Of a stretch of 64,000 nucleotides of DNA, positions 3,385 through 55,730 are shown piece after piece. The position numbers were made by a program, and so were the translations under genes. Below the pieces are notes generated by a model. That model had not been told where the DNA came from. It saw only the letters and a list, made by a program, of their open reading frames with translations, and made no database searches. Source of the DNA: a phage. Position 1 is the first letter of the stretch, and each line of letters opens with the position of its first letter. The stretch is taken from the sequence record PZ212788.1; one strand, 5' to 3'.

Positions 3385-3889
3385 GGTAACCCTCTATCCA
3401 CGAAAAGTCAGTCTTCCATTCTGGAACTTTACTAAGCTCACGCCACTCTGCAAAGCAGTCTCGGTAATACGCCTCTGCCATACTCTTGGTGATCTTATTC
3501 ACCTTAGCCAACTGATTAACTGCCTGAGCATACTTTCCACGGATATTTGCTAACCCAGGATGCACCGATGTGTGACAATCTGGGCACAACGCTATCAGTC
3601 CGACAAGCCGGATCACTCCCTCTTCGAAAGTGTAAAGTTCATGACACTCCACTGGGTGTTTGCTGCCTTTACCGCCGCACACCTCACAAGTGTAGTTGGC
3701 TTCTCTATAGCACTTCTTACGTATCTTATCCCACTCACTCTTCGTCACAGAGTTTCGGAGGTTATTATACCAAGCTGTTTCTGGGATCAGTTGCACAATA
3801 AGCCTGCGTTCAGACTTCATTAAACGTCCGTCTTCCACGTGTTCTCCCTCATTCAAAGAAATGGGTGCGAGGGCAGGAACCTGCCTCAC
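3374..3889 (-). CDS. zinc-finger protein, HNH-like
   Basis: CEVCGG...ECHELY...LCPDCH cysteine/histidine cluster. Confidence 0.35.
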   Translation of the reverse strand: MRQVPALAPISLNEGEHVEDGRLMKSERRLIVQLIPETAWYNNLRNSVTKSEWDKIRKKCYREANYTCEVCGGKGSKHPVECHELYTFEEGVIRLVGLIALCPDCHTSVHPGLANIRGKYAQAVNQLAKVNKITKSMAEAYYRDCFAEWRELSKVPEWKTDFSWIEGYLDG

Positions 3890-4055
3890 CTTGTTTCACA
3901 AGCTCGTAGAGCTCACCTTGACTTGTCTCATAAAGGCAAATACGTTTACCATTGTCCCGATATACATCGACAAGATACGCTGTTTCACCTGCAAACACGA
4001 CACCACAGGACAGACATGCTACCATGAACAAAATTGCCAACAGAAAATCTTTCAT
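3849..4055 (-). CDS. small lipoprotein
   Basis: N-terminal signal MKDFLLAILFMVACLSCG with lipobox L-S-C; AGGAGGG RBS 7 nt upstream; immediately downstream of endolysin; overlaps 3374..3889 by 41 nt. Confidence 0.45.
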   Translation of the reverse strand: MKDFLLAILFMVACLSCGVVFAGETAYLVDVYRDNGKRICLYETSQGELYELVKQGEAGSCPRTHFFE

Positions 4056-4118: not shown

Positions 4119-4589
4119 TCAATCAAGGACAACACCGCCTGCCTTTTTAAACACCTCGATCAACTTCTCGATCTTCTGTTCATGCTGACCATATCCAGCA
4201 CCAGGTAACGAAGCCCAGCGGGAACGGCATTTATGGATAGCCTCGTGGATACGCCCTTCGTCAATGTCGGCGAGAGCCTTGCACTCACGGATCAGTTGCA
4301 ACGCAATCTTGTCCTGACTGGCGGGGCCAAAATCTGGCAATCCTAACTGTTCCATGTAGTGTTTAGCAAACTTCTCCAAAACCTGGTAACGACCAGCAGC
4401 GGAGGAGGTAAGTTTAGCATTTAGCTTAACGTACACACCTGGATGCTTGCTGTAATCGCTAAACAGCTTGCCACCAACTATGACATCGTATCCCCGATCC
4501 TTAGTGGGTTGCCTACCATTATCTGTGCCTTCCGAATATGCGATCATGTCCAAGAAAGCTTTTCGTTGAACATTTTTATCAAGTTTCAT
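4119..4589 (-). CDS. R: endolysin, lambda R-like lytic transglycosylase
   Basis: Near-colinear with lambda R: QRKAFLDM, YSEGTDNGRQPT, GYDVIVGG, ASLPGAGYGQHE, FKKAGG. Confidence 0.85.
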   Translation of the reverse strand: MKLDKNVQRKAFLDMIAYSEGTDNGRQPTKDRGYDVIVGGKLFSDYSKHPGVYVKLNAKLTSSAAGRYQVLEKFAKHYMEQLGLPDFGPASQDKIALQLIRECKALADIDEGRIHEAIHKCRSRWASLPGAGYGQHEQKIEKLIEVFKKAGGVVLD

Positions 4590-10873: not shown

Positions 10874-10947
10874 ACCAGTAAAAACTTAAATATCTGTACT
10901 ATAAGGATTCGTATGTTTTATGTTCGCTCTAGAATAGAGGTCAGTAA

Positions 10948-11030
10948 CTGTCCGTGATACGGACACTACTGTCCGTCACGCGGACACATCTGCCCGTAAT
11001 ACGGACACTAACTGTCCGTGATACGGACAC
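10948..11030. repeat. iteron array: four direct copies of 19-bp palindromic site CTGTCCGTGATACGGACAC at 21-22 bp spacing
   Basis: Copies at 10948-10966, 10969-10987, 10990-11008, 11012-11030; copies 1 and 4 identical; each has TGTCCG/CGGACA arms around a 5-nt spacer. Confidence 0.8.
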
Positions 11031-11534
11031 ATAAAGAATATAACTAAAATAACTAAATAATAAAAAATAAAAGATCTAGTACTTATGGTACTAAAGTACA
11101 TATACTTAACTTATGTAGAATATACTAGATCCTAAGTACCATGTTTTAAATTTATTACTTACTATAGGTAGTGTCGGCCCTTCATTGGCACTCGCCTACG
11201 AGGGGCGAGATGCCGGGCCTCCATAGTGCACACAATAACAGAAGTGCATACATGCAGGTCTGTTAACATGTGTGGGAGCGAAGCGATAGCGCAGGCCAAA
11301 GGCCGAGCACTAATGTGGACCACCGACGAAAGCTTGCCAGCGCCGTAAGGAGTCGGTTGAGAGCCTCCCGCGCGAGTTTGGATAAAGTTTATGTGTGGAA
11401 ACTGACAAGAAGGCCCCTAAATCGCTCCACAGCTATATAAACTATACCAAGTAAGGCAATCGCACCAGTTTGATAGAAAAGCTCGTTACAAAGCGATACA
11501 GTGAGTTTTTCTATAACTTGAAGAGGAGTCTGCT

Positions 11535-13411: not shown

Positions 13412-13486
13412 GCCCTGTTAGCTTAGTGGATAAAGCAGCGGCCTTCTAAGCCGTTGACACTGGTTCGAGTCCAGTACGGGGTGCCA
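13412..13486 (+). tRNA. tRNA-Arg (anticodon TCT)
   Basis: Hand-folded cloverleaf: acceptor GCCCTGT/ACGGGGT, D arm GCTT/AAGC, anticodon stem GCGGC/GCCGT with loop CTTCTAA, T arm ACTGG-TTCGAGT-CCAGT, discriminator G, encoded CCA. Confidence 0.8.
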
Positions 13487-13490
13487 AATT

Positions 13491-13577
13491 GGGGAGTTAT
13501 CCCGTAGGGGTAGCGGTGTAGACTGTAAATCTATTGTCATTGCGACTCGGGTGGTTCGACTCCACCACTCCCCACCA
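13491..13577 (+). tRNA. tRNA-Tyr (anticodon GTA), type II
   Basis: Acceptor GGGGAGT/ACTCCCC, anticodon loop CTGTAAA, long variable arm, T arm GGTGG-TTCGACT-CCACC, CCA encoded. Confidence 0.8.
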
Positions 13578-13692
13578 AATTTATAGTTTTAAATGCATAA
13601 ATCATACAGATAATGGCATTGATATTTATCGTCGTTTATACTAGTCACTAACTGCTCGAAAATCAGTGTCATTATCAGTATTGTTTATAAAT

Positions 13693-13778
13693 GAGGGTAG
13701 GGAGCAATGGTGCTCAAGCGGTCTTGAAAACCGTCCCGTTGAGGATGACTTGATGATGGTTCGATTCCATTACCCTCA
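13693..13778 (+). tRNA. tRNA-Ser (anticodon TGA), type II
   Basis: Acceptor GAGGGTA/TACCCTC, anticodon stem GCGGT/ACCGT with loop CTTGAAA, long variable arm, T arm ATGG-TTCGATT-CCAT. Confidence 0.75.
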
Positions 13779-13879
13779 GCCATATTGTTGACCTTGTAAT
13801 TAATCGAAAGCCGGAAGCAGAACCGGATTATCAAATGTTACAGTCGTCATCGCCGACTAGCAACATGGTCAACATACTG

Positions 13880-13976
13880 AGCTAGGTAAGCCCTTTGGCA
13901 AGGGCGAGGATTTTTAATCCTGAAAATAGACGAGGTAGTCGTTGAATACATAGGTGGTTCGATTCCATCACCTAGC
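13880..13976 (+). tRNA. atypical tRNA-like element (97 nt), anticodon hairpin presenting TTT (Lys-like), with about 30-nt variable-region insertion
   Basis: Acceptor GCTAGGT/ACCTAGC, D arm GCCC-TTTGGCAA-GGGC, hairpin AGGA-TTTTTAA-TCCT, T arm GGTGG-TTCGATT-CCATC; too long for canonical tRNA. Confidence 0.4.
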
Positions 13977-13985
13977 ACCTTTTTT

Positions 13986-14061
13986 GCTGATGTAGCACAA
14001 TTGGTAGTGCAATTGATTTGTAATCAATAGGTTGCAGGTTCAAGTCCTGCCATCAGCACCA
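13986..14061 (+). tRNA. tRNA-Thr (anticodon TGT)
   Basis: Acceptor GCTGATG/CATCAGC, D arm GCAC-AATTGGTA-GTGC, anticodon stem ATTGA/TCAAT with loop TTTGTAA, T arm GCAGG-TTCAAGT-CCTGC, CCA encoded. Confidence 0.8.
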
Positions 14062-14062
14062 T

Positions 14063-14137
14063 GGCCCTGTAGCTGGAAGGTTCAAGCAAGCGACTCATAA
14101 TCGCCAGACGGTGGTTCAATTCCACCCAGGGCCACCA
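14063..14137 (+). tRNA. tRNA-Met or tRNA-Ile2 (anticodon CAT)
   Basis: Acceptor GGCCCTG/CAGGGCC, anticodon loop CTCATAA, T arm GTGG-TTCAATT-CCAC, CCA encoded. Confidence 0.7.
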
Positions 14138-14148
14138 AATAATAAATA

Positions 14149-14225
14149 CTCCGCGTAGCTCAGCTTGGTAGAGCGCCTGATTTGGGATCAGGAGGTCGAG
14201 TGTTCGAATCACTCCGTGGAGACCA
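14149..14225 (+). tRNA. tRNA-Pro (anticodon TGG)
   Basis: Acceptor CTCCGCG/CGTGGAG, D arm GCTC-AGCTTGGTA-GAGC, anticodon stem CCTGA/TCAGG with loop TTTGGGA, T arm GAGTG-TTCGAAT-CACTC, CCA encoded. Confidence 0.8.
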
Positions 14226-14646: not shown

Positions 14647-15045
14647 ATGATTTCAGTTTTAACATGGCTGAGCAGGTATAGAGGGATCATAAAAGGTTTA
14701 GTTTTTGCAGCTGCGATAGGTACAGCTTATCTTGGGGCCGTGTATTGGTTTAACTCTAAGCTTAATGATGCCTACCAAGAAGGTGTGTCAGCAACAGAGT
14801 TAAAGTGGGAACGGATCCTTGATCAGCAACAAAAGCAGGCCGACAAAATTAAAATGGGCCACGCAGAGGAGGTTAAAAACCTTGAAAAATCCCTTTCTGA
14901 TCTACAGGATAAATTAAATATGGCTGAGAAGGCAGGTAAAGAAAAGCAGATTATCTACCTCCAATCACCTGAAGGTAAGAAGTCAACACTTCCTGATCAG
15001 CTTATAGATATTTATAATGAGAGTATCAATCAGGAGGATCGATGA
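14647..15045 (+). CDS. i-spanin (Rz-like)
   Basis: N-terminal TM helix followed by coiled-coil periplasmic domain; stop overlaps lipoprotein gene. Confidence 0.5.
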   Translation: MISVLTWLSRYRGIIKGLVFAAAIGTAYLGAVYWFNSKLNDAYQEGVSATELKWERILDQQQKQADKIKMGHAEEVKNLEKSLSDLQDKLNMAEKAGKEKQIIYLQSPEGKKSTLPDQLIDIYNESINQEDR

Positions 15046-15329
15046 GAGTTGCTACACTGTTTATTGCGTGCTTGTTATTATGTGGGTGTGCAACCAGTGT
15101 TGAGAAAGAATACAAGATTGACCCTCCAGATGTAGGAAGGTTGATTGTTAAACCCCCAGAAGGTGCCATGAAACCACCTGCTAAAGCTATGCCTTTGAAG
15201 AAAGGTGCGCCAGATGCAGTGAACTCTGGCATTATGAGGGATAATAATTTGTCTTGTAGCAATGATAGAGCTAAATTGATCATTTTGCAAGACTATATTA
15301 GAACACTGTTTCCAAAGGAGAGAGGTTAA
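15042..15329 (+). CDS. o-spanin (Rz1-like outer-membrane lipoprotein)
   Basis: Signal peptide with lipobox LLCGCA, proline-rich mature part, AGGAGG RBS. Confidence 0.55.
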   Translation: MRVATLFIACLLLCGCATSVEKEYKIDPPDVGRLIVKPPEGAMKPPAKAMPLKKGAPDAVNSGIMRDNNLSCSNDRAKLIILQDYIRTLFPKERG

Positions 15330-16876
15330 TGTCTAAGATTTACGGACCGTGTTCTGAAAAGCAGAAGATGATCCTCGAAAACGATGCAGATATTTTGGTA
15401 ATCGGCGGTGCCGCAGGGTCTGGCAAGTCGTTCCTCTTGCAGTTGATGCCGCTTAAAATTATTGATGACCCCCACAGCTCTGTAGTTATGTTCCGAAGAA
15501 CAACTCCCCAGTTGGAAGGTGAGGGTGGGCTATGGCCTAAAGCAGTAGCTATTTATAGTGATCTGCCTGAAAACATTAAGCCAAAGTTCAGAGAGAAGGA
15601 TCATAAGTTCATTTTTCCACGGTTTGATCCGAATACTGGTAAGTGGGATAGAAGCAAAAAGGGAGCTGTTGTAAAATACTGCCATATGGAGTATGTACAA
15701 GATAAGCTTAACCATCAGGGGCTTGAGTACACCATGGTTTGCTTCGATGAGGGCACGCAGTTCGAATGGGAGCAGATAGACTACCTGATGTCTCGTCTGC
15801 GATCTCAGTCAAAGTATCCATCAAGGATGGTTATCAGCTGTAACCCTGATTCAGAACACATGCTTGCCAAACTGGTTAGATGGTGGTTGGACGATGAAGG
15901 GTATCCAGATCCGGAGAAATGCGGTAAGAAAAGATATTTTATCCGACGCGACGGTGAATTTATTTGGGGAGACTCTAAGGAAGAGTTGATAGAGAAATAC
16001 ACCACGGTTAACGGACTGGGTGTAGAGATCAAGCCAAGACCGTTGTCATTCTCGTTCATAGGCGCAACAATATTCGATAATCCTGTCTGTTTGAGAGACA
16101 ACCCAGAATACCTTGCTTTCCTAGAAGGTCTACCAGAGCTGGAAAAAGCTCAGCTTCTCCATGGTAACTGGTTTGCAAAGCCTGAGGGTGCAAACTATTT
16201 TCAAAGATCTTTCCTTCGTGATGCCGATAGAGTACCACTTGGATCAGTATCTTGTAGGGCATGGGATAAGGCAGGAACCGAGAGAACTTCCGGTAATAAA
16301 TTTCCTGACTTTACTGCCAGTATTAAGGTAAGTAAAGATAGCGACGGCTTTTATTACCTGTCCGGTGATTATTGTCCTGAGAACGTGGATGACGGGAGGT
16401 ATTCCACAGGTCTGGAAGGCAAGTTCTGTAAAAAGGCTGGTGAACGAGATGTGATCATCAGGAAACAGGCGCAGTTCGATGGTGATGATTGCATAATCGT
16501 CTTCTCTGTGGACCCAGGACAGGCAGGTAAGAGTGAGTTCTTAACCTCCTCCAGATCCTTGCTCGCCGAAGGGTTTAGGGTTGAAGAAGACCCAATGCCT
16601 TCCAACAAATCTAAACTGACAAGGTTCTCACCTTTTGCCAATCTTGCCCAACAAGGGATGGTGAGGATTGTAAAATCCAGTTTCCATCCTGATACTCTGG
16701 AAGCATTTCTGACTGAACTTGAAAAATTCAACGGGGAAAGATCAACATTTAACAGAAAAGACGACTGGGCCGACTGTGTAGCTTCTGCGATTAATTTCCT
16801 GGAGAAAGAGGAGGTAGCACTTCCTTGTGTGATTCCATCAATCTCATCACCTTCTATGTTCAAGCGTTTTATCTAA
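15329..16876 (+). CDS. terL: terminase large subunit
   Basis: Walker A ILVIGGAAGSGKSF, Walker B-like VCFDEGTQF, 515 aa, position ahead of portal. Confidence 0.85.
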   Translation: MSKIYGPCSEKQKMILENDADILVIGGAAGSGKSFLLQLMPLKIIDDPHSSVVMFRRTTPQLEGEGGLWPKAVAIYSDLPENIKPKFREKDHKFIFPRFDPNTGKWDRSKKGAVVKYCHMEYVQDKLNHQGLEYTMVCFDEGTQFEWEQIDYLMSRLRSQSKYPSRMVISCNPDSEHMLAKLVRWWLDDEGYPDPEKCGKKRYFIRRDGEFIWGDSKEELIEKYTTVNGLGVEIKPRPLSFSFIGATIFDNPVCLRDNPEYLAFLEGLPELEKAQLLHGNWFAKPEGANYFQRSFLRDADRVPLGSVSCRAWDKAGTERTSGNKFPDFTASIKVSKDSDGFYYLSGDYCPENVDDGRYSTGLEGKFCKKAGERDVIIRKQAQFDGDDCIIVFSVDPGQAGKSEFLTSSRSLLAEGFRVEEDPMPSNKSKLTRFSPFANLAQQGMVRIVKSSFHPDTLEAFLTELEKFNGERSTFNRKDDWADCVASAINFLEKEEVALPCVIPSISSPSMFKRFI

Positions 16877-50598: not shown

Positions 50599-51639
50599 AT
50601 GTCAAAACCTAGTTTTCCATTAGAGATTTGGGCAGAGGAGGATCAGGTTCTGCCTAACACCCACAGACAGAACAGGCTACGCCCGATTGATGATTTGTGG
50701 AGAAAAGGTTGGGATCTTGGTCAAAAGCCATCCTGTGAAGAACTTAACTATATTTTCAATATGCTCGGAACTTGGGCAAAATACATTGCTGACGAGCAGA
50801 TCCCCGCTCAAGAAGGCCGTTATCTGGTACGTGATAATAACTTGAGCGATCTTTTGAACATCCCTGTTGCCCGTAGAAACCTTGGGATTATCACTAAGGA
50901 AGAGGCAGACGCCAGGTATGTAAAAGTTACAGGTGATACAATGACAGGCCCCTTGGGGTTGCAACGTATCAACTTTAAAGCTGCCGAGACAGATAAGGCT
51001 TGGATAGAGACAACTATTGGCCCAGATAAGACAACTCTCGACTTTGGGTTAAGTGATAATACCGGGTCGTTTGATGATGGTGGTACATCTACAGTAGATG
51101 CGTTTCGTTGGAGATTCCAGCCAACTCAGCCGGATATTAATCCAGAGTTCACTTTGATGTACCTTAACGCGATCACGGCTAATCGTGCGCTGTTGAAAGT
51201 GGTAGGCAATGTTGAAGTTGTCGATAACATGAGGTGCAATAACCTTACTATCAGCAATACAGCAACATTCACCAACTGTAATGTGGCTAGTCAGTTGACG
51301 GCTGGGTCAGTATATGTTAATGGTGGTGCAAGTTGTGACAGTATGGTTGTAAGAAGCCAGCACTGTGTTGTCGGTAACAGAAATGTGGTGCGCTCCGTGA
51401 ATGGAGTGACGGCTAACGGTAACGGTGATGTAACGATCACTATCCCGCAGACAGGTGTGCAAGACATCAGAATCGGTGCAAGACTTGTGGACGGCGTTTC
51501 TGAATCTCCAATCCGCAACGGCTACGTTGTCACAGGCTGGCATTTCGGTGACAAAAAAGAGATGCGTGGTTCAACCTACTGGGCAGGACCTTTACAAAAA
51601 CTTGTAAATGGTCAATGGATCACTGTTAATTATGCATAG
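50599..51639 (+). CDS. tail fibre protein, paralog A
   Basis: Shares N-terminus and C-terminus QKLVNGQWIT with 52654..53697. Confidence 0.55.
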   Translation: MSKPSFPLEIWAEEDQVLPNTHRQNRLRPIDDLWRKGWDLGQKPSCEELNYIFNMLGTWAKYIADEQIPAQEGRYLVRDNNLSDLLNIPVARRNLGIITKEEADARYVKVTGDTMTGPLGLQRINFKAAETDKAWIETTIGPDKTTLDFGLSDNTGSFDDGGTSTVDAFRWRFQPTQPDINPEFTLMYLNAITANRALLKVVGNVEVVDNMRCNNLTISNTATFTNCNVASQLTAGSVYVNGGASCDSMVVRSQHCVVGNRNVVRSVNGVTANGNGDVTITIPQTGVQDIRIGARLVDGVSESPIRNGYVVTGWHFGDKKEMRGSTYWAGPLQKLVNGQWITVNYA

Positions 51640-51653
51640 ATCGGAGGACTAGC

Positions 51654-52238
51654 ATGAAAATACTTCAAGAGTTTAAACTTTACCAACCGGGATCTGGCGA
51701 ATACCACTCCAACAAGGAAACCAAGGAGCTGACCCCTCAAGAGGTCGAGGATTACACCGCATACACTGGGTATTTTTTACGTAATGATGATGGTGATTGG
51801 TATGTGCAGTCACGAACATTACGACAAGAAAATCCAGGGTGTATCTTCCTACTTGTTGACGAGAAGGGAATTCTTAAGACATCTACAGAAGAACCTGATG
51901 CCTTATGGCCTGCTCCAGGTCTTCGTGTGGTTATCGCCAAAAAAGAAGAGGTACCAGAAAACATTATGCTTCACCACGACGCTTTGCGTTTAGTTGGTGA
52001 TGAATTTGTCACAGACAATGAATTCTTTGTTCAACAGGCAGAGGGTGTCATAGAGACAGAACTTGCTTGGGCTACTGCTAGAATTGGTGCCTATCAAGAC
52101 ATGATTGACCTTGAATATGATCTTACTGATGACCAGAAACGTAACATCAGAGATTTGAAAATGTACAGGGTAAAACTTCTTGAAATAGATACATCTAAAG
52201 CCCCTGACATTTTCTTCCCGGAGCGACCTACCCTCTAA
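51654..52238 (+). CDS. tail fibre assembly protein (Tfa-like chaperone)
   Basis: C-terminal YRVKLLEIDTSKAPDIFFPERP matches conserved tail-fibre-assembly C-terminus. Confidence 0.55.
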   Translation: MKILQEFKLYQPGSGEYHSNKETKELTPQEVEDYTAYTGYFLRNDDGDWYVQSRTLRQENPGCIFLLVDEKGILKTSTEEPDALWPAPGLRVVIAKKEEVPENIMLHHDALRLVGDEFVTDNEFFVQQAEGVIETELAWATARIGAYQDMIDLEYDLTDDQKRNIRDLKMYRVKLLEIDTSKAPDIFFPERPTL

Positions 52239-52249
52239 GAGGAGGTGTT

Positions 52250-52564
52250 GTGGAGTTGGATTTGGCGGCATTGTACGGTATCTGCATGGGTACCGTTGTC
52301 CCGATCTGTGTATGGGCTTTCAACCAGTGGCACACCAAATGGAAAGGCATTTCCAAGAGGTTGGATGAGCTGGAGAAAGACCTCATCTTAGTGAAAAACA
52401 GTATGGTTACAAAAGATAGACTTGATTCCGTTATCGAGACTCGGTTAAGCAAGCTAGAGGCCGATATTAACGACCTTAAGCAGGATGTCAGGACAGATGT
52501 CTCCGGCATCCGAGCTGATGTACAAAAGATTTTGCACATGCTCGTAGAGCATAGTAAAAGGTAA
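52250..52564 (+). CDS. membrane-anchored coiled-coil protein
   Basis: GTG start with AAGAGGAGG RBS; N-terminal TM segment then heptad-repeat region. Confidence 0.4.
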   Translation: MELDLAALYGICMGTVVPICVWAFNQWHTKWKGISKRLDELEKDLILVKNSMVTKDRLDSVIETRLSKLEADINDLKQDVRTDVSGIRADVQKILHMLVEHSKR

Positions 52565-52573
52565 ACAAAGGTC

Positions 52574-52606
52574 AGAACGGAAAGGACTCCGTTCTTGCAT
52601 TTTGTT
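52574..52606 (+). terminator. hairpin terminator
   Basis: AGAACGG-loop-CCGTTCT followed by TTTTGTT. Confidence 0.4.
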
Positions 52607-52623
52607 CTCTAAAGTGTTAAAAT
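52595..52623 (+). promoter_or_regulatory. candidate promoter TTGCAT-N17-TAAAAT (extended -10 TGt)
   Basis: Motif spacing upstream of fibre paralog B. Confidence 0.4.
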
Positions 52624-52653
52624 AGTCCTAAGGAATTTTCTCAGGAGAACGTG

Positions 52654-53697
52654 ATGACTAAACCAGTTATCCCTCTTGATATTTGGGCCAATCAGGATGT
52701 TGTGCTTGAAAATACGGGAGAGTTGAATAAGTCTCAACCAAAAAAAGAAGAGAGATTGAAAGGTTGGGATATGACACAAAGAATGGCATGTGAAGTTGTT
52801 AACTTTGAACTTCACATGCTTTCTGCGTGGTTGAAGCATTTAACAGAAGATGTTGTCCCAGGATGGGATAATAGATTCTTAAAGGTCACTAATAATCTAG
52901 CAGACGTTCCAGACAAAGCTGCTGCACGTCAAGTTCTCAATGTATACTCACCTGAAGAAATGGACGATCTATATGTTGACAAGTCTGGAGACATAATGAC
53001 TCAGACTCAAACTTTAGGTCTCCAAAGAATCGAGTTTGCATCTGCGTCAACAGACAGTGCGGCAATATATACCACCATAACGCCAGACAAGACGACGATG
53101 GATTTCTGGATTATGGACAACATCGGTGGTGCTGACGGCACAGACCTTGATGATCCTTCTCACCAAATAGACGGGTTCCGTTGGAGATTTCAACCTTCTG
53201 GTGGGCAGCCTGTGTTTTCGGCTATGAAGCTCAATGCTATAACTGCCAACCGTGCAAGACTGGCTATCCAAGGAAATCTTGAATGCAACGATGCAAAAAG
53301 TTCCTCTGCAAATGCCAATGCGGTCACGATACCAAGAGCCACTGTTAACGGACAACAATCCTGCGGAAGCGCTCAAATAGGTGGAAGAGTTGATTGTAAC
53401 GATGAAACCGTTAGAGGCCAATATGCAACCGTTGGTGGAAGAAACGTGGTCCGCAGGGTAAACGGTAACAGCGCAGACGGTAGTGGTAACCTTACTGTCC
53501 CTATGCCCAGTAGAGGGGTTGACGATGTAAGGATAGCAAACCGTTTCAAAACCACCTACAGAGAGTCAAGAGTCTACCCTGGACATGTGATGTGCTCTGG
53601 TAACTACGCTTATAAACACCCTTATCAAGGTGATTACTGGACAGGTGCTATCCAAAAACTTGTAAACGGTCAATGGATCACTATATCTTATGCTTAA
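52654..53697 (+). CDS. tail fibre protein, paralog B
   Basis: AGGAG RBS; conserved termini with paralog A, divergent central region. Confidence 0.55.
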   Translation: MTKPVIPLDIWANQDVVLENTGELNKSQPKKEERLKGWDMTQRMACEVVNFELHMLSAWLKHLTEDVVPGWDNRFLKVTNNLADVPDKAAARQVLNVYSPEEMDDLYVDKSGDIMTQTQTLGLQRIEFASASTDSAAIYTTITPDKTTMDFWIMDNIGGADGTDLDDPSHQIDGFRWRFQPSGGQPVFSAMKLNAITANRARLAIQGNLECNDAKSSSANANAVTIPRATVNGQQSCGSAQIGGRVDCNDETVRGQYATVGGRNVVRRVNGNSADGSGNLTVPMPSRGVDDVRIANRFKTTYRESRVYPGHVMCSGNYAYKHPYQGDYWTGAIQKLVNGQWITISYA

Positions 53698-53708
53698 AAA
53701 GAGGGTAA

Positions 53709-53975
53709 ATGAAACTAACTCAGTTTTTATGGGGACTGGTTGCGGCATCTGATGACCCTACGAAAGTATCCCAATCTAAGCTATGGTCGAACATAGGCAT
53801 GGCGGTGATGACTGGGGTGTTTATTCATATGGGGTATAATGATACGCTTCCTGAATGGTATGCGTGGATATATGCACCTTCAGTAGCCTGCCCCCAGCTT
53901 ATTAGCAAATTCATCTCGCTCCGGTGGGGTTGCCAGCACCCTGACCACGTTAAAAACGAAGAGCAAAAAGCTTAA
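53709..53975 (+). CDS. small membrane protein, candidate holin
   Basis: 88 aa, two hydrophobic segments, charged C-terminus; no other holin-like ORF found near endolysin. Confidence 0.3.
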   Translation: MKLTQFLWGLVAASDDPTKVSQSKLWSNIGMAVMTGVFIHMGYNDTLPEWYAWIYAPSVACPQLISKFISLRWGCQHPDHVKNEEQKA

Positions 53976-53984
53976 GGAGAAATC

Positions 53985-55730
53985 ATGGCGCAAGACATGA
54001 CAAGCTTCGAGCAGGCGGTAGATCAAGTAATTGTTGATTCTGAACGTTTGCACTTGATTGTCAACGGTAACGCTGTGGATGAAGTTGTCGTAGAGGATGG
54101 GACCACTATCCCTACGGTACGAAAAGCCATGCTTGACACCCTTTATTTTAAAACGCCACCAATCCCTTGGGCGTATGGTGCATCCACAACAGTTTTTAAC
54201 CAGTTGTATGAGTTTAAAGGGGATACAGGCACTCAGTGGTGGTACGCCCCAGCAGCATCAAAATCTAACCCGGTTAGAATGCCAGCAGATCCTTCACAAT
54301 CTCCAAACTGGAGATTATACACCGACTCTGCAGTAATGGCAAAATACTACGCAAAACTTAACAGCCCAAGGTTCGAAGGTGACCCGCGAGTACCTACACC
54401 TCCAATGGACGACAAATCCGAGTCTATAGCAAACACAGAGTTTGTTGTTGACTATGTGGATAGCATATTTGAAGCCATGGAGGGAATGAAAGTTACTGTA
54501 GGGTCTTTGGTGGTAAAAGGTCTTACAGAACTTGCTAACACTATAGTTGGTGGCACACTCACCTTACATGGGCCTGTTAATGGAGCAGATTCTACTGCAC
54601 GCTTCAGGAACCTAATCCTCACGGCAAATACTTCTACACTTACTTTTGCGTGGAGTGATCCTAAGCATGCAGACTGGAGAAGCACAGAGCTGCAACCTCA
54701 TGAAGTGTCCACCCACAGGGTTATAGCTGACACTATAACTTCTGGGAAACCAGTGGCTAATAATAACGATGTGCATTTTGATGGTCTAGGTAATAACTTT
54801 TTTGACTACGTGTACATTCGTGGTAATGCCATGAAGGCAGCAACCGAACCGACATTGCAGGTAGATGGAACCACCAGGGTTAAGAACCTTGAGGTGACAG
54901 GCACTGTTACAGGGATAACCTACTCTGTCGATGGCACCATGATTTACCCTAGCTATATTGAAAGCACGGGGGACGCATTAATAAATGGTGATTTAGAAGT
55001 TGGCGGATCTGTAGTTATTCGAGGTACAGCCTCTATCCAAAACATAGCTCTGAATACCCTAAGAGTCAATGAGCGTGCAACTTTTGAAGGGGAAGGGCTT
55101 ACAGCCAACAAAGGTGTAATTACCGAGCTGACAACCACTACTTTAACTGCAACAACTGCAAACTCTGAAAACTGCAACGTTACCAGAAACTTGCAGGTAA
55201 ATGGAGATGTTAGTTTAAACGCAGCAGGGACGGGCACCACCTACCTTCACAACCTTGAAATATCCGGCACAGTGACTGGGTGGCTGCCAGACTTCTCTAA
55301 TGTCAACTTTGTTTGTAATGGCATTAACTCCAGTGGCAAGATAACCACCTCTCAAGAAATTGAGGCGGGTAAAACCATTACTGCCCCTACTTTCCACGCA
55401 GGAAAGGTAGATTTTGATTTAGAGGAGGTTGACGCGTCCAGTGGGACATGGACACCTAACGGGCAGGCCAGTATGTATGTTGTCCACGCGAAAGGGGATT
55501 TTACAATAGGACAATGGCCTGGTACATCAGCGGAAGATAAACCTTATCCATTCACTGCGGTTATCTATGTCATTCAGGATGCTGTAGGTCACAACGTGAC
55601 TTTGCACGATAAGTATGCTATCCTGTCGGCAACGCCTGTTATTAATAACAAGGCTAATAGTGTTACCTTGCTGCAATTAACATATTGTGGTGTTGGTGAT
55701 ATCGTAGACGTAGTAATTGCACAACGTTAA
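53985..55730 (+). CDS. tail fibre protein
   Basis: N-terminal FEGDPRVPTPP...SIANTEFV resembles conserved fibre collar motif of Stf/gpH-like fibres; beta-repeat middle. Confidence 0.6.
   Translation: MAQDMTSFEQAVDQVIVDSERLHLIVNGNAVDEVVVEDGTTIPTVRKAMLDTLYFKTPPIPWAYGASTTVFNQLYEFKGDTGTQWWYAPAASKSNPVRMPADPSQSPNWRLYTDSAVMAKYYAKLNSPRFEGDPRVPTPPMDDKSESIANTEFVVDYVDSIFEAMEGMKVTVGSLVVKGLTELANTIVGGTLTLHGPVNGADSTARFRNLILTANTSTLTFAWSDPKHADWRSTELQPHEVSTHRVIADTITSGKPVANNNDVHFDGLGNNFFDYVYIRGNAMKAATEPTLQVDGTTRVKNLEVTGTVTGITYSVDGTMIYPSYIESTGDALINGDLEVGGSVVIRGTASIQNIALNTLRVNERATFEGEGLTANKGVITELTTTTLTATTANSENCNVTRNLQVNGDVSLNAAGTGTTYLHNLEISGTVTGWLPDFSNVNFVCNGINSSGKITTSQEIEAGKTITAPTFHAGKVDFDLEEVDASSGTWTPNGQASMYVVHAKGDFTIGQWPGTSAEDKPYPFTAVIYVIQDAVGHNVTLHDKYAILSATPVINNKANSVTLLQLTYCGVGDIVDVVIAQR

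Follow-up and report, generated by a model that had tools for sequence, protein, structure and literature searches.

We analyzed the lysis genes of a stretch of phage DNA of 64,000 nucleotides (sequence record PZ212788.1; hereafter the window), in which a sequence-only reading by a model had proposed two small open reading frames (ORFs) among the tail-fibre genes as holin candidates. These ORFs encode proteins of 104 and 88 amino acids (aa). The window is derived from a Vequintavirus (rV5-like coliphage): positions 51600-54100 share 99.6% identity with Escherichia phage ECP2303 and 95-99% with approximately 100 other rV5-like Vequintavirus phages, and the ORF map agrees with the deposited annotations of the collinear relatives naswa and Bas59 EduardKellenberger. 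The window covers approximately 47% of the ~137-kb genome, and statements on the only candidates apply to the window alone. All ORFs named in the sequence-only reading were found where it had placed them.

The order of the fibre cassette is a first short-tail-fibre gene (50599-51639, plus strand; PHROG 4465, E 1.8e-171; Bas59 annotation), the gene for the tail-fibre assembly chaperone Tfa (51654-52238, plus strand; Pfam Caudo_TAP, E 9e-12; PHROG 136), the 104-aa ORF (52250-52564, plus strand), a terminator-like hairpin (52574-52595), a second short-tail-fibre paralogue (52651-53697, plus strand; PHROG 4465, E 7.5e-166), the 88-aa ORF (53709-53975, plus strand) and a lateral-tail-fibre gene. 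The hairpin was obtained from a consensus scan and stands only as a pattern match, with a stem of 8 pairs on the plus strand and 9 pairs on the minus strand.

The 88-aa protein is the orthologue of rV5 gp29. It matched PHROG 1322 ("membrane protein") with E 2.7e-32 over its full length, residues 1-87 being aligned to profile positions 1-86 of 87. The ORF starts with ATG, and a Shine-Dalgarno sequence, AGAGGG, precedes it. In the AlphaFold2 model made with the family alignment, helices were predicted at residues 3-11, 22-43 and 49-73. In this model, the second and third helices form a hairpin joined by a 5-residue acidic loop, and the pLDDT of the hairpin core is 80-89. The last 21 residues contain three K/R and three D/E. 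The small size (below approximately 150 aa) and the charged hydrophilic tail that are looked for in a holin were both found in this protein.

A profile search of 1.84 billion representatives with the 88-aa family gave 72 relatives at 50% identity, and PHROG 1322 matched all 71 relatives scanned. The family alignment shows two conserved hydrophobic blocks. Helix 1 begins with a conserved S-H-T-K-x-W-x-N and is separated by approximately 6 loop residues from helix 2, which ends in S-K-[FW]. In the 71 relatives, the C-terminal tail is charged and differs between members. An extra, strongly hydrophobic N-terminal transmembrane domain (TMD) is present in 13 of them, so that the family has variants with two and with three TMDs. 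No match was obtained in the Pfam and NCBIfam scans of the 88-aa protein, and a PDB profile search with its family gave chance matches only. The source name of one metagenomic relative had suggested DUF2644. This identity was rejected, since DUF2644 did not match the 88-aa protein at E<=1 and matched only 5 of the 71 relatives, weakly (best E 2e-4); no paper mentioning DUF2644 was found. By tblastn, the 88-aa protein was detected in 369 phage records (Vequintavirinae, phi92-like phages, Phapecoctavirus phages and others). In the contexts examined, those of CR3, ECGD1, Aeromonas phage 2L372X and phi92, its homologue lies in the fibre/baseplate module.

Endolysin and spanins of the window

The endolysin gene (4119-4589, minus strand) encodes a protein of 156 aa that belongs to PHROG 90 (E 3e-56) and is of the soluble phage lambda R (lytic transglycosylase) type. 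Along its whole length (residues 4-154), it matched 1AM7 and 3D3D, two structures of phage lambda lysozyme (E 3e-56). Neither a hydrophobic segment at the N-terminus nor a signal-anchor-release (SAR) domain was detected in the endolysin. A soluble enzyme of this type requires a holin that forms holes.

Downstream of the endolysin, a secreted or lipoprotein-like protein of 68 aa is encoded (3849-4055, minus strand; PHROG 4641, unknown function). Its single N-terminal hydrophobic segment (residues 4-22; Kyte-Doolittle (KD) score 2.73) contains Cys14 and Cys17 and fits a signal peptide or a weak lipobox. As a holin, this neighbour was set aside, because one signal-like N-terminal segment does not make a multi-transmembrane (multi-TM) protein. 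It might conceivably be a periplasmic lysis regulator.

The i-spanin (Rz-like; 14647-15045, plus strand) matched the Rz-like spanin family PHROG 4297 with E 1.4e-49 and has an N-terminal TMD after R10, R12 and K16. The o-spanin, an Rz1-like lipoprotein (15042-15329, plus strand), matched the Rz-like spanin family PHROG 1267 with E 1.7e-22 and carries the lipobox LLLCGC. The start of the o-spanin ORF overlaps the i-spanin stop, and its end is the start of the large terminase ORF at 15329. Thus, the dispersal of the lysis genes that the sequence-only reading had pointed out is real: the endolysin gene is on the minus strand at 4119-4589, and the spanin genes are beside the terminase gene at 14647-15329. 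Dispersed lysis genes have already been documented for rV5, PVP-SE1 and CB7 (PMC7344957; PMC3606486), and the spanins of these three phages adjoin the terminase outside any lysis cassette (CB7 paper, PMC7344957).

In a Kyte-Doolittle scan of the whole window, no further small protein with a credible TM segment was found, apart from spurious overlapping ORFs. The statement that the two fibre-cassette ORFs are the only small multi-TM candidates holds for the window alone. The rV5 protein gp129, which has been published as a putative holin, is encoded outside the window.

The authors of the LL12 report could not identify a holin, and no holin was found in the KPP-1 paper. The KP12 paper was set aside, since a mixed sequence is suggested by its reported count of 397 genes and by lysis cassettes that are T1-like as well as P1/P2-like.

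Relatives of the 88-aa protein in lysis cassettes

The relatives of the 88-aa protein include a clade encoded in complete lysis cassettes. When the rV5 clade was compared with the cassette clade by hhalign, the two were aligned with 99.3% probability (E 7e-21) over 64 columns covering both helices. A metagenomic locus has, in order, a GH108 endolysin, a PHROG 1322 member, an i-spanin (Rz-like PHROGs) and an overlapping lipoprotein ORF (o-spanin). In the Pseudomonas Mu-like phage Bise, Mor is followed by an M15 endolysin and a PHROG 1322 member whose start overlaps the stop of the endolysin; Rz, in which Rz1 is embedded, comes next, and the terminase lies farther on. The Ralstonia phages RS138 and YO381_1 likewise have an endolysin, a PHROG 1322 member and an annotated "Rz protein" with an embedded lipobox ORF.

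When GTDB genomes were scanned with a sequence motif, 17 prophage loci of Betaproteobacteria were obtained that have the order endolysin, PHROG 1322 member, Rz/Rz1. Together with the loci above, in 19 of 21 loci, an ORF of at least 110 aa ends at most 150 nucleotides (nt) upstream of the member, mostly with an ATGA overlap of start and stop. Downstream of the member, a TM-anchored (i-spanin-like) ORF was present in 20 of the 21 loci and a lipobox ORF in 19. The upstream ORF was an endolysin in 18 of the 19 cases scanned, and these endolysins fall into five families: Amidase_2 (5), VanY/M15 (5), PHROG 873 (5), GH108 (2) and PHROG 90 (1), to which the endolysin of the window also belongs. Among IMG/VR loci, a recognised endolysin lies directly upstream in 23 of 36 and an i-spanin-like ORF lies downstream in 30 of 36; in nine more, the upstream ORF resembles a GH19, GH24-like, M15A, CHAP-like or amidase enzyme, as judged by eye. 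Although the loci are not independent, a holin gene would be expected to stay, as this one does, next to endolysin genes of many unrelated types.

PHROG 1322 members occur outside such cassettes as well. In the T4-like Stenotrophomonas phage Mendera (L016:3863-4246), and also in loci L007 and L008, the members have three TMDs. The Menderavirus member stands alone on the opposite strand, has a terminator of its own and is flanked by the DNA polymerase gene and the dUTPase/regA genes. No holin was found in the Menderavirus group by the authors of the Ps15 paper. PHROG 1322 occurs in groups that were reported without a holin, namely LL12, KPP-1 and Menderavirus (the Ps15 group, with the member in Mendera).

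The 88-aa protein as candidate holin and rival explanations

The sequence-only reading had offered both fibre-cassette ORFs as holin candidates. Comparison strongly supports this for the 88-aa ORF, whose family occupies the holin slot of canonical endolysin-X-Rz/Rz1 cassettes in other phages, but does not support it for the 104-aa ORF. The 88-aa protein (53709-53975) is the best candidate for the holin of this phage, and on the homology and the predicted hairpin we lean somewhat toward this assignment. The soluble lambda-R-type endolysin would build up in the cytoplasm, while the 88-aa protein would be translated from the late tail-fibre operon and would enter the inner membrane as an N-in/C-in helical hairpin. 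If its function is the same in the cassette and rV5 clades, the protein would form holes at a critical level, which would set the time of lysis, and the endolysin would gain access to the cell wall. The Rz/Rz1-type spanin pair would then disrupt the outer membrane and complete lysis. This would be an ordinary three-step Gram-negative lysis system with its genes at three places.

Several observations weigh against this assignment. The 88-aa gene is approximately 49 kb from the endolysin gene and 38 kb from the spanin genes, so that the adjacency usual for a holin gene is not seen in the window. The helices are weakly hydrophobic: the best 19-residue KD window scores 1.05, and the family means are approximately 0.9. 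In the rV5 paper, gp29 has no annotation and no TMD by either TMHMM or Phobius (PMC3606486, Table S3). No match to a Pfam or NCBIfam holin model was obtained, and no member is called a holin among the GenBank records listed. As for the cassettes, all loci were retrieved by one motif and are mostly Mu-like prophages of Betaproteobacteria. Some IMG/VR loci duplicate GTDB loci, and the counts are not those of independent events. Finally, locus L038 carries an additional 86-aa ORF with approximately three TMDs (L038:3254-3514) upstream of a CHAP-like endolysin, which is followed by the PHROG 1322 member. From this extra ORF, some systems could have two holin-like genes, in which the PHROG 1322 member could be an antiholin or a second holin.

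The rival that survives best is that the true holin is a gp129-type protein (75-78 aa, two strongly hydrophobic TMDs, K/R-rich C-terminus) encoded outside the window, and that the 88-aa protein has another role. The sequence-only reading had named a canonical holin elsewhere in the genome as the finding that would speak against it, and this has come true in part: rV5 gp129 (78 aa, two TMDs, basic C-terminus) was proposed as a putative holin separate from the lysin "as in phage T4" (PMC3606486). It was chosen as the sole rV5 protein with two TMDs by both TMHMM and Phobius (PMC3606486, Table S3). The orthologue in ECP2303 (L004:19043-19270), which has the tail RKESRDGDRT, is a more conventionally hydrophobic two-TMD protein whose TM segments score 2.41 and 2.51, and this counts against the 88-aa protein. 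However, the proposal was drawn from topology alone, and later expert annotators accepted no holin for the group (LL12). gp129 was found only in Vequintavirus: it occurs in 116 phage records, and its 26 protein clusters all lie on contigs of rV5-like genomes. It falls into PHROG 10061, a family of unknown function, diverges fast, to approximately 55% identity, and was never seen beside an endolysin or a spanin. Among the records listed, including those of BASEL and CPT, none labels it a holin. Furthermore, sister genera that have the spanins and the 88-aa gene do not have gp129. Thus, gp129 has textbook hydrophobicity and no comparative support. We regard it as a serious possibility, though on balance an unlikely one.

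It is less probable still that the 88-aa protein, the 104-aa protein or both belong in function to the tail-fibre/baseplate module, be it as an assembly factor associated with the membrane, as a minor component of the virion, or as a superinfection-blocking or receptor-masking protein. In Vequintavirinae, Aeromonas Plateaulakevirus and phi92-like phages alike, both genes stay at their place within the fibre/baseplate module. The short-tail-fibre chaperone gene always precedes the 104-aa gene, and the 88-aa homologue is labelled "structural protein" in the ECGD1 and ESCO8 records. Small membrane proteins encoded beside receptor-binding genes are often exclusion proteins, such as T5 Llp and phi80 Cor, which also fits this explanation. 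In contrast, small Mu-like phages encode their relatives of the 88-aa protein in lysis cassettes and not in tail modules, and the Menderavirus member stands alone beside the DNA polymerase gene. The phi92 RefSeq record calls the 88-aa homologue a "membrane protein", not a structural one. In addition, gp29 and gp31 were not marked as detected in the mass spectrometry of rV5 virions, a study in which few proteins were detected.

The 104-aa protein, the orthologue of rV5 gp31, matched PHROG 5345 with E 1.5e-48. Its ORF has a GTG start and a strong Shine-Dalgarno sequence, AAGAGGAGG. The protein has a single TM segment (residues 5-23, KD 1.91) followed by a coiled coil, in agreement with the annotation "membrane protein, 1 TMD" in the rV5 paper (PMC3606486). 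The acidic MELDL precedes the TMD, and K30, K32, K36 and R37 follow it. Therefore, an N-out/C-in topology with a cytoplasmic coiled coil is predicted, which is opposite to that of the phage's own i-spanin. The protein is conserved in 224 records. In CR3, Aeromonas phage 2L372X, ECGD1 and phi92, this protein or a clear analogue of it is encoded after the short-tail-fibre chaperone. Nothing significant was obtained in its Pfam and NCBIfam scans, which gave coiled-coil noise only, including XhlA (E 0.012).

In 22 loci, a family of TM plus coiled-coil proteins is encoded downstream of the spanins at a distance of a few genes. In the Mu-like loci this family lies at the position of the Mu releasin gp25, after a gp24-like zinc-finger ORF. 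By hhalign, the 104-aa family was aligned to it with 84.8% probability (E 6.6e-6). The idea that the 104-aa protein is a releasin comes from its architecture and from this one result. When Mu gp25 was compared directly with the 104-aa family, hhalign gave 2.4%, which is not significant, and a search of the cassette loci with the hidden Markov model of the 104-aa family gave no significant match (best E 0.024). No Pfam match to DUF2730 was detected in the 104-aa protein (E<=1), in other homologues of it or in the Mu-like TM plus coiled-coil proteins. Membership of the releasin/DUF2730 family was therefore rejected for the 104-aa ORF, also because the gene lies in the tail-fibre module and not within five genes of the endolysin gene. 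The protein may be a lysis accessory or a short-tail-fibre assembly factor.

A second cell-wall hydrolase, the SleB-like rV5 gp2, is encoded beside rIIA in close relatives; in ECP2303 it is at L003:34036-34536, outside the window. It has an N-terminal signal or anchor segment, MKIKIFAIILSAFLSLPVVAAP. If this segment is a SAR-type domain, the hydrolase could bear on the releasin-like architecture of the 104-aa protein.

The assignment of the 88-aa protein as a holin could be widened. PHROG 1322 would then be an unrecognised, widespread family of two- and three-TMD holins that supplies the holin of Vequintavirinae, phi92-like phages, Aeromonas Plateaulakevirus, Stenotrophomonas Menderavirus and many Mu-like prophages, and the 104-aa protein would be its releasin-like or antiholin-like partner in a two-gene lysis-control unit within the tail-fibre module. 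We consider this combination, taken as a whole, improbable. As for PHROG 1322 itself, its assignment as a holin family appears to be new and would add to a well-known, very diverse class of proteins.

Lastly, the 104-aa protein itself is very unlikely to be a holin or an i-spanin-like lysis protein: it is small, has a clear TMD, is encoded in the late operon and gives weak coiled-coil matches such as that to XhlA, but it has a single TMD in the predicted N-out/C-in orientation, a cytoplasmic coiled coil and no relative in a holin slot, and its nearest weak relatives are at the position of gp25, which is not a holin. The i-spanin identity was rejected because the topology is wrong, no lipobox (lipoprotein) ORF adjoins the gene, the true spanin pair is present elsewhere, and hhalign of the 104-aa family against i-spanins gave 0.14%.

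The rV5-like, phi92-like and related large myoviruses are among the most often isolated coliphages and are widely proposed for therapy and biocontrol, and several genome papers on them report that a holin could not be found. If PHROG 1322 is a holin family, the lysis pathway would be completed for several hundred sequenced phages, the generic "membrane protein / moron" label of automatic annotators would be corrected, and the timing of lysis in these phages could be approached by simple experiments. The weakly hydrophobic helices would also show why holin searches based on TM predictors miss some holins.

Other features of the window and comparison with known lysis systems

The large terminase gene (15329-16876) is one uninterrupted ORF of 515 aa in the window. 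Introns interrupt this gene in naswa, in LL12 and in rV5, where it is given as "64abc, spliced, 515 aa" together with an HNH endonuclease. Thus, the phage of the window appears to be without the terminase introns of these three phages. Seven tRNA genes are clustered at 13412-14225. Within this cluster, a 99-nt "tRNA-???" at 13881-13979 was called with a four-base anticodon, and it corresponds to "tRNA-OTHER" in naswa. At 10939-11030, four tandem copies with a spacing of 21-22 nt were found, the unit having a palindrome-like core, CTGTCCGT...CGGACAC. The array lies within an ORF-free intergenic stretch (10874-11534) of the plus-strand block, and naswa has a repeat_region at the same place. It looks like an array of putative protein-binding sites. 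In the GenBank records MG0656xx, approximately 16-21 phages are named "Campylobacter phage" with the host C. jejuni, yet their sequences are 98-100% identical to rV5-like coliphages. These records are probably mislabelled or contaminant sequences.

Scattered lysis genes are known from other phages. In T4, the holin gene t follows gene 38. In T7, gp3.5 is the amidase, the holin gp17.5 is encoded after the tail-fibre gene 17, and gp18.5/18.7 are the spanins. The arrangement in the window resembles that of T7, in that the endolysin gene is in the early/DNA-metabolism block, the gene of a small candidate holin modelled as a helical hairpin follows a tail-fibre gene, and the spanin genes are by the terminase gene. 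However, no sequence relationship to the T7 proteins was detected, with no Pfam match at E<=1, and the phage of the window is a 137-kb myovirus with a lambda-R-type transglycosylase endolysin.

The 104-aa protein resembles the Mu gp25 releasin (DUF2730; PMC9239132) in its length of approximately 100 aa, its N-terminal TMD predicted to be N-out/C-in and its tethered cytoplasmic helical domain. In contrast to Mu, its gene is not near the endolysin gene, the endolysin of the window has no SAR domain, and no DUF2730 match was obtained. As for rV5 gp129, it is a small two-TMD protein of the same phage group and, like the 88-aa candidate, is encoded apart from the endolysin. The two differ in that gp129 is outside the window, is confined to one genus and has no cassette context, whereas the 88-aa candidate corresponds to gp29, which was left unannotated (PMC3606486).

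Unlike those of the S-R-Rz/Rz1 cassette of phage lambda, the lysis genes of the window lie apart from one another. The candidate holin has two helices of weak hydrophobicity instead of the three clear TMDs of lambda S, and no dual-start motif is evident in it. However, the endolysin and lambda R are close relatives within one structural family (1AM7, E 3e-56), and the spanins are of the Rz/Rz1 type. The proposed mechanism would also be the same as that of lambda, in which the holin frees a soluble endolysin.

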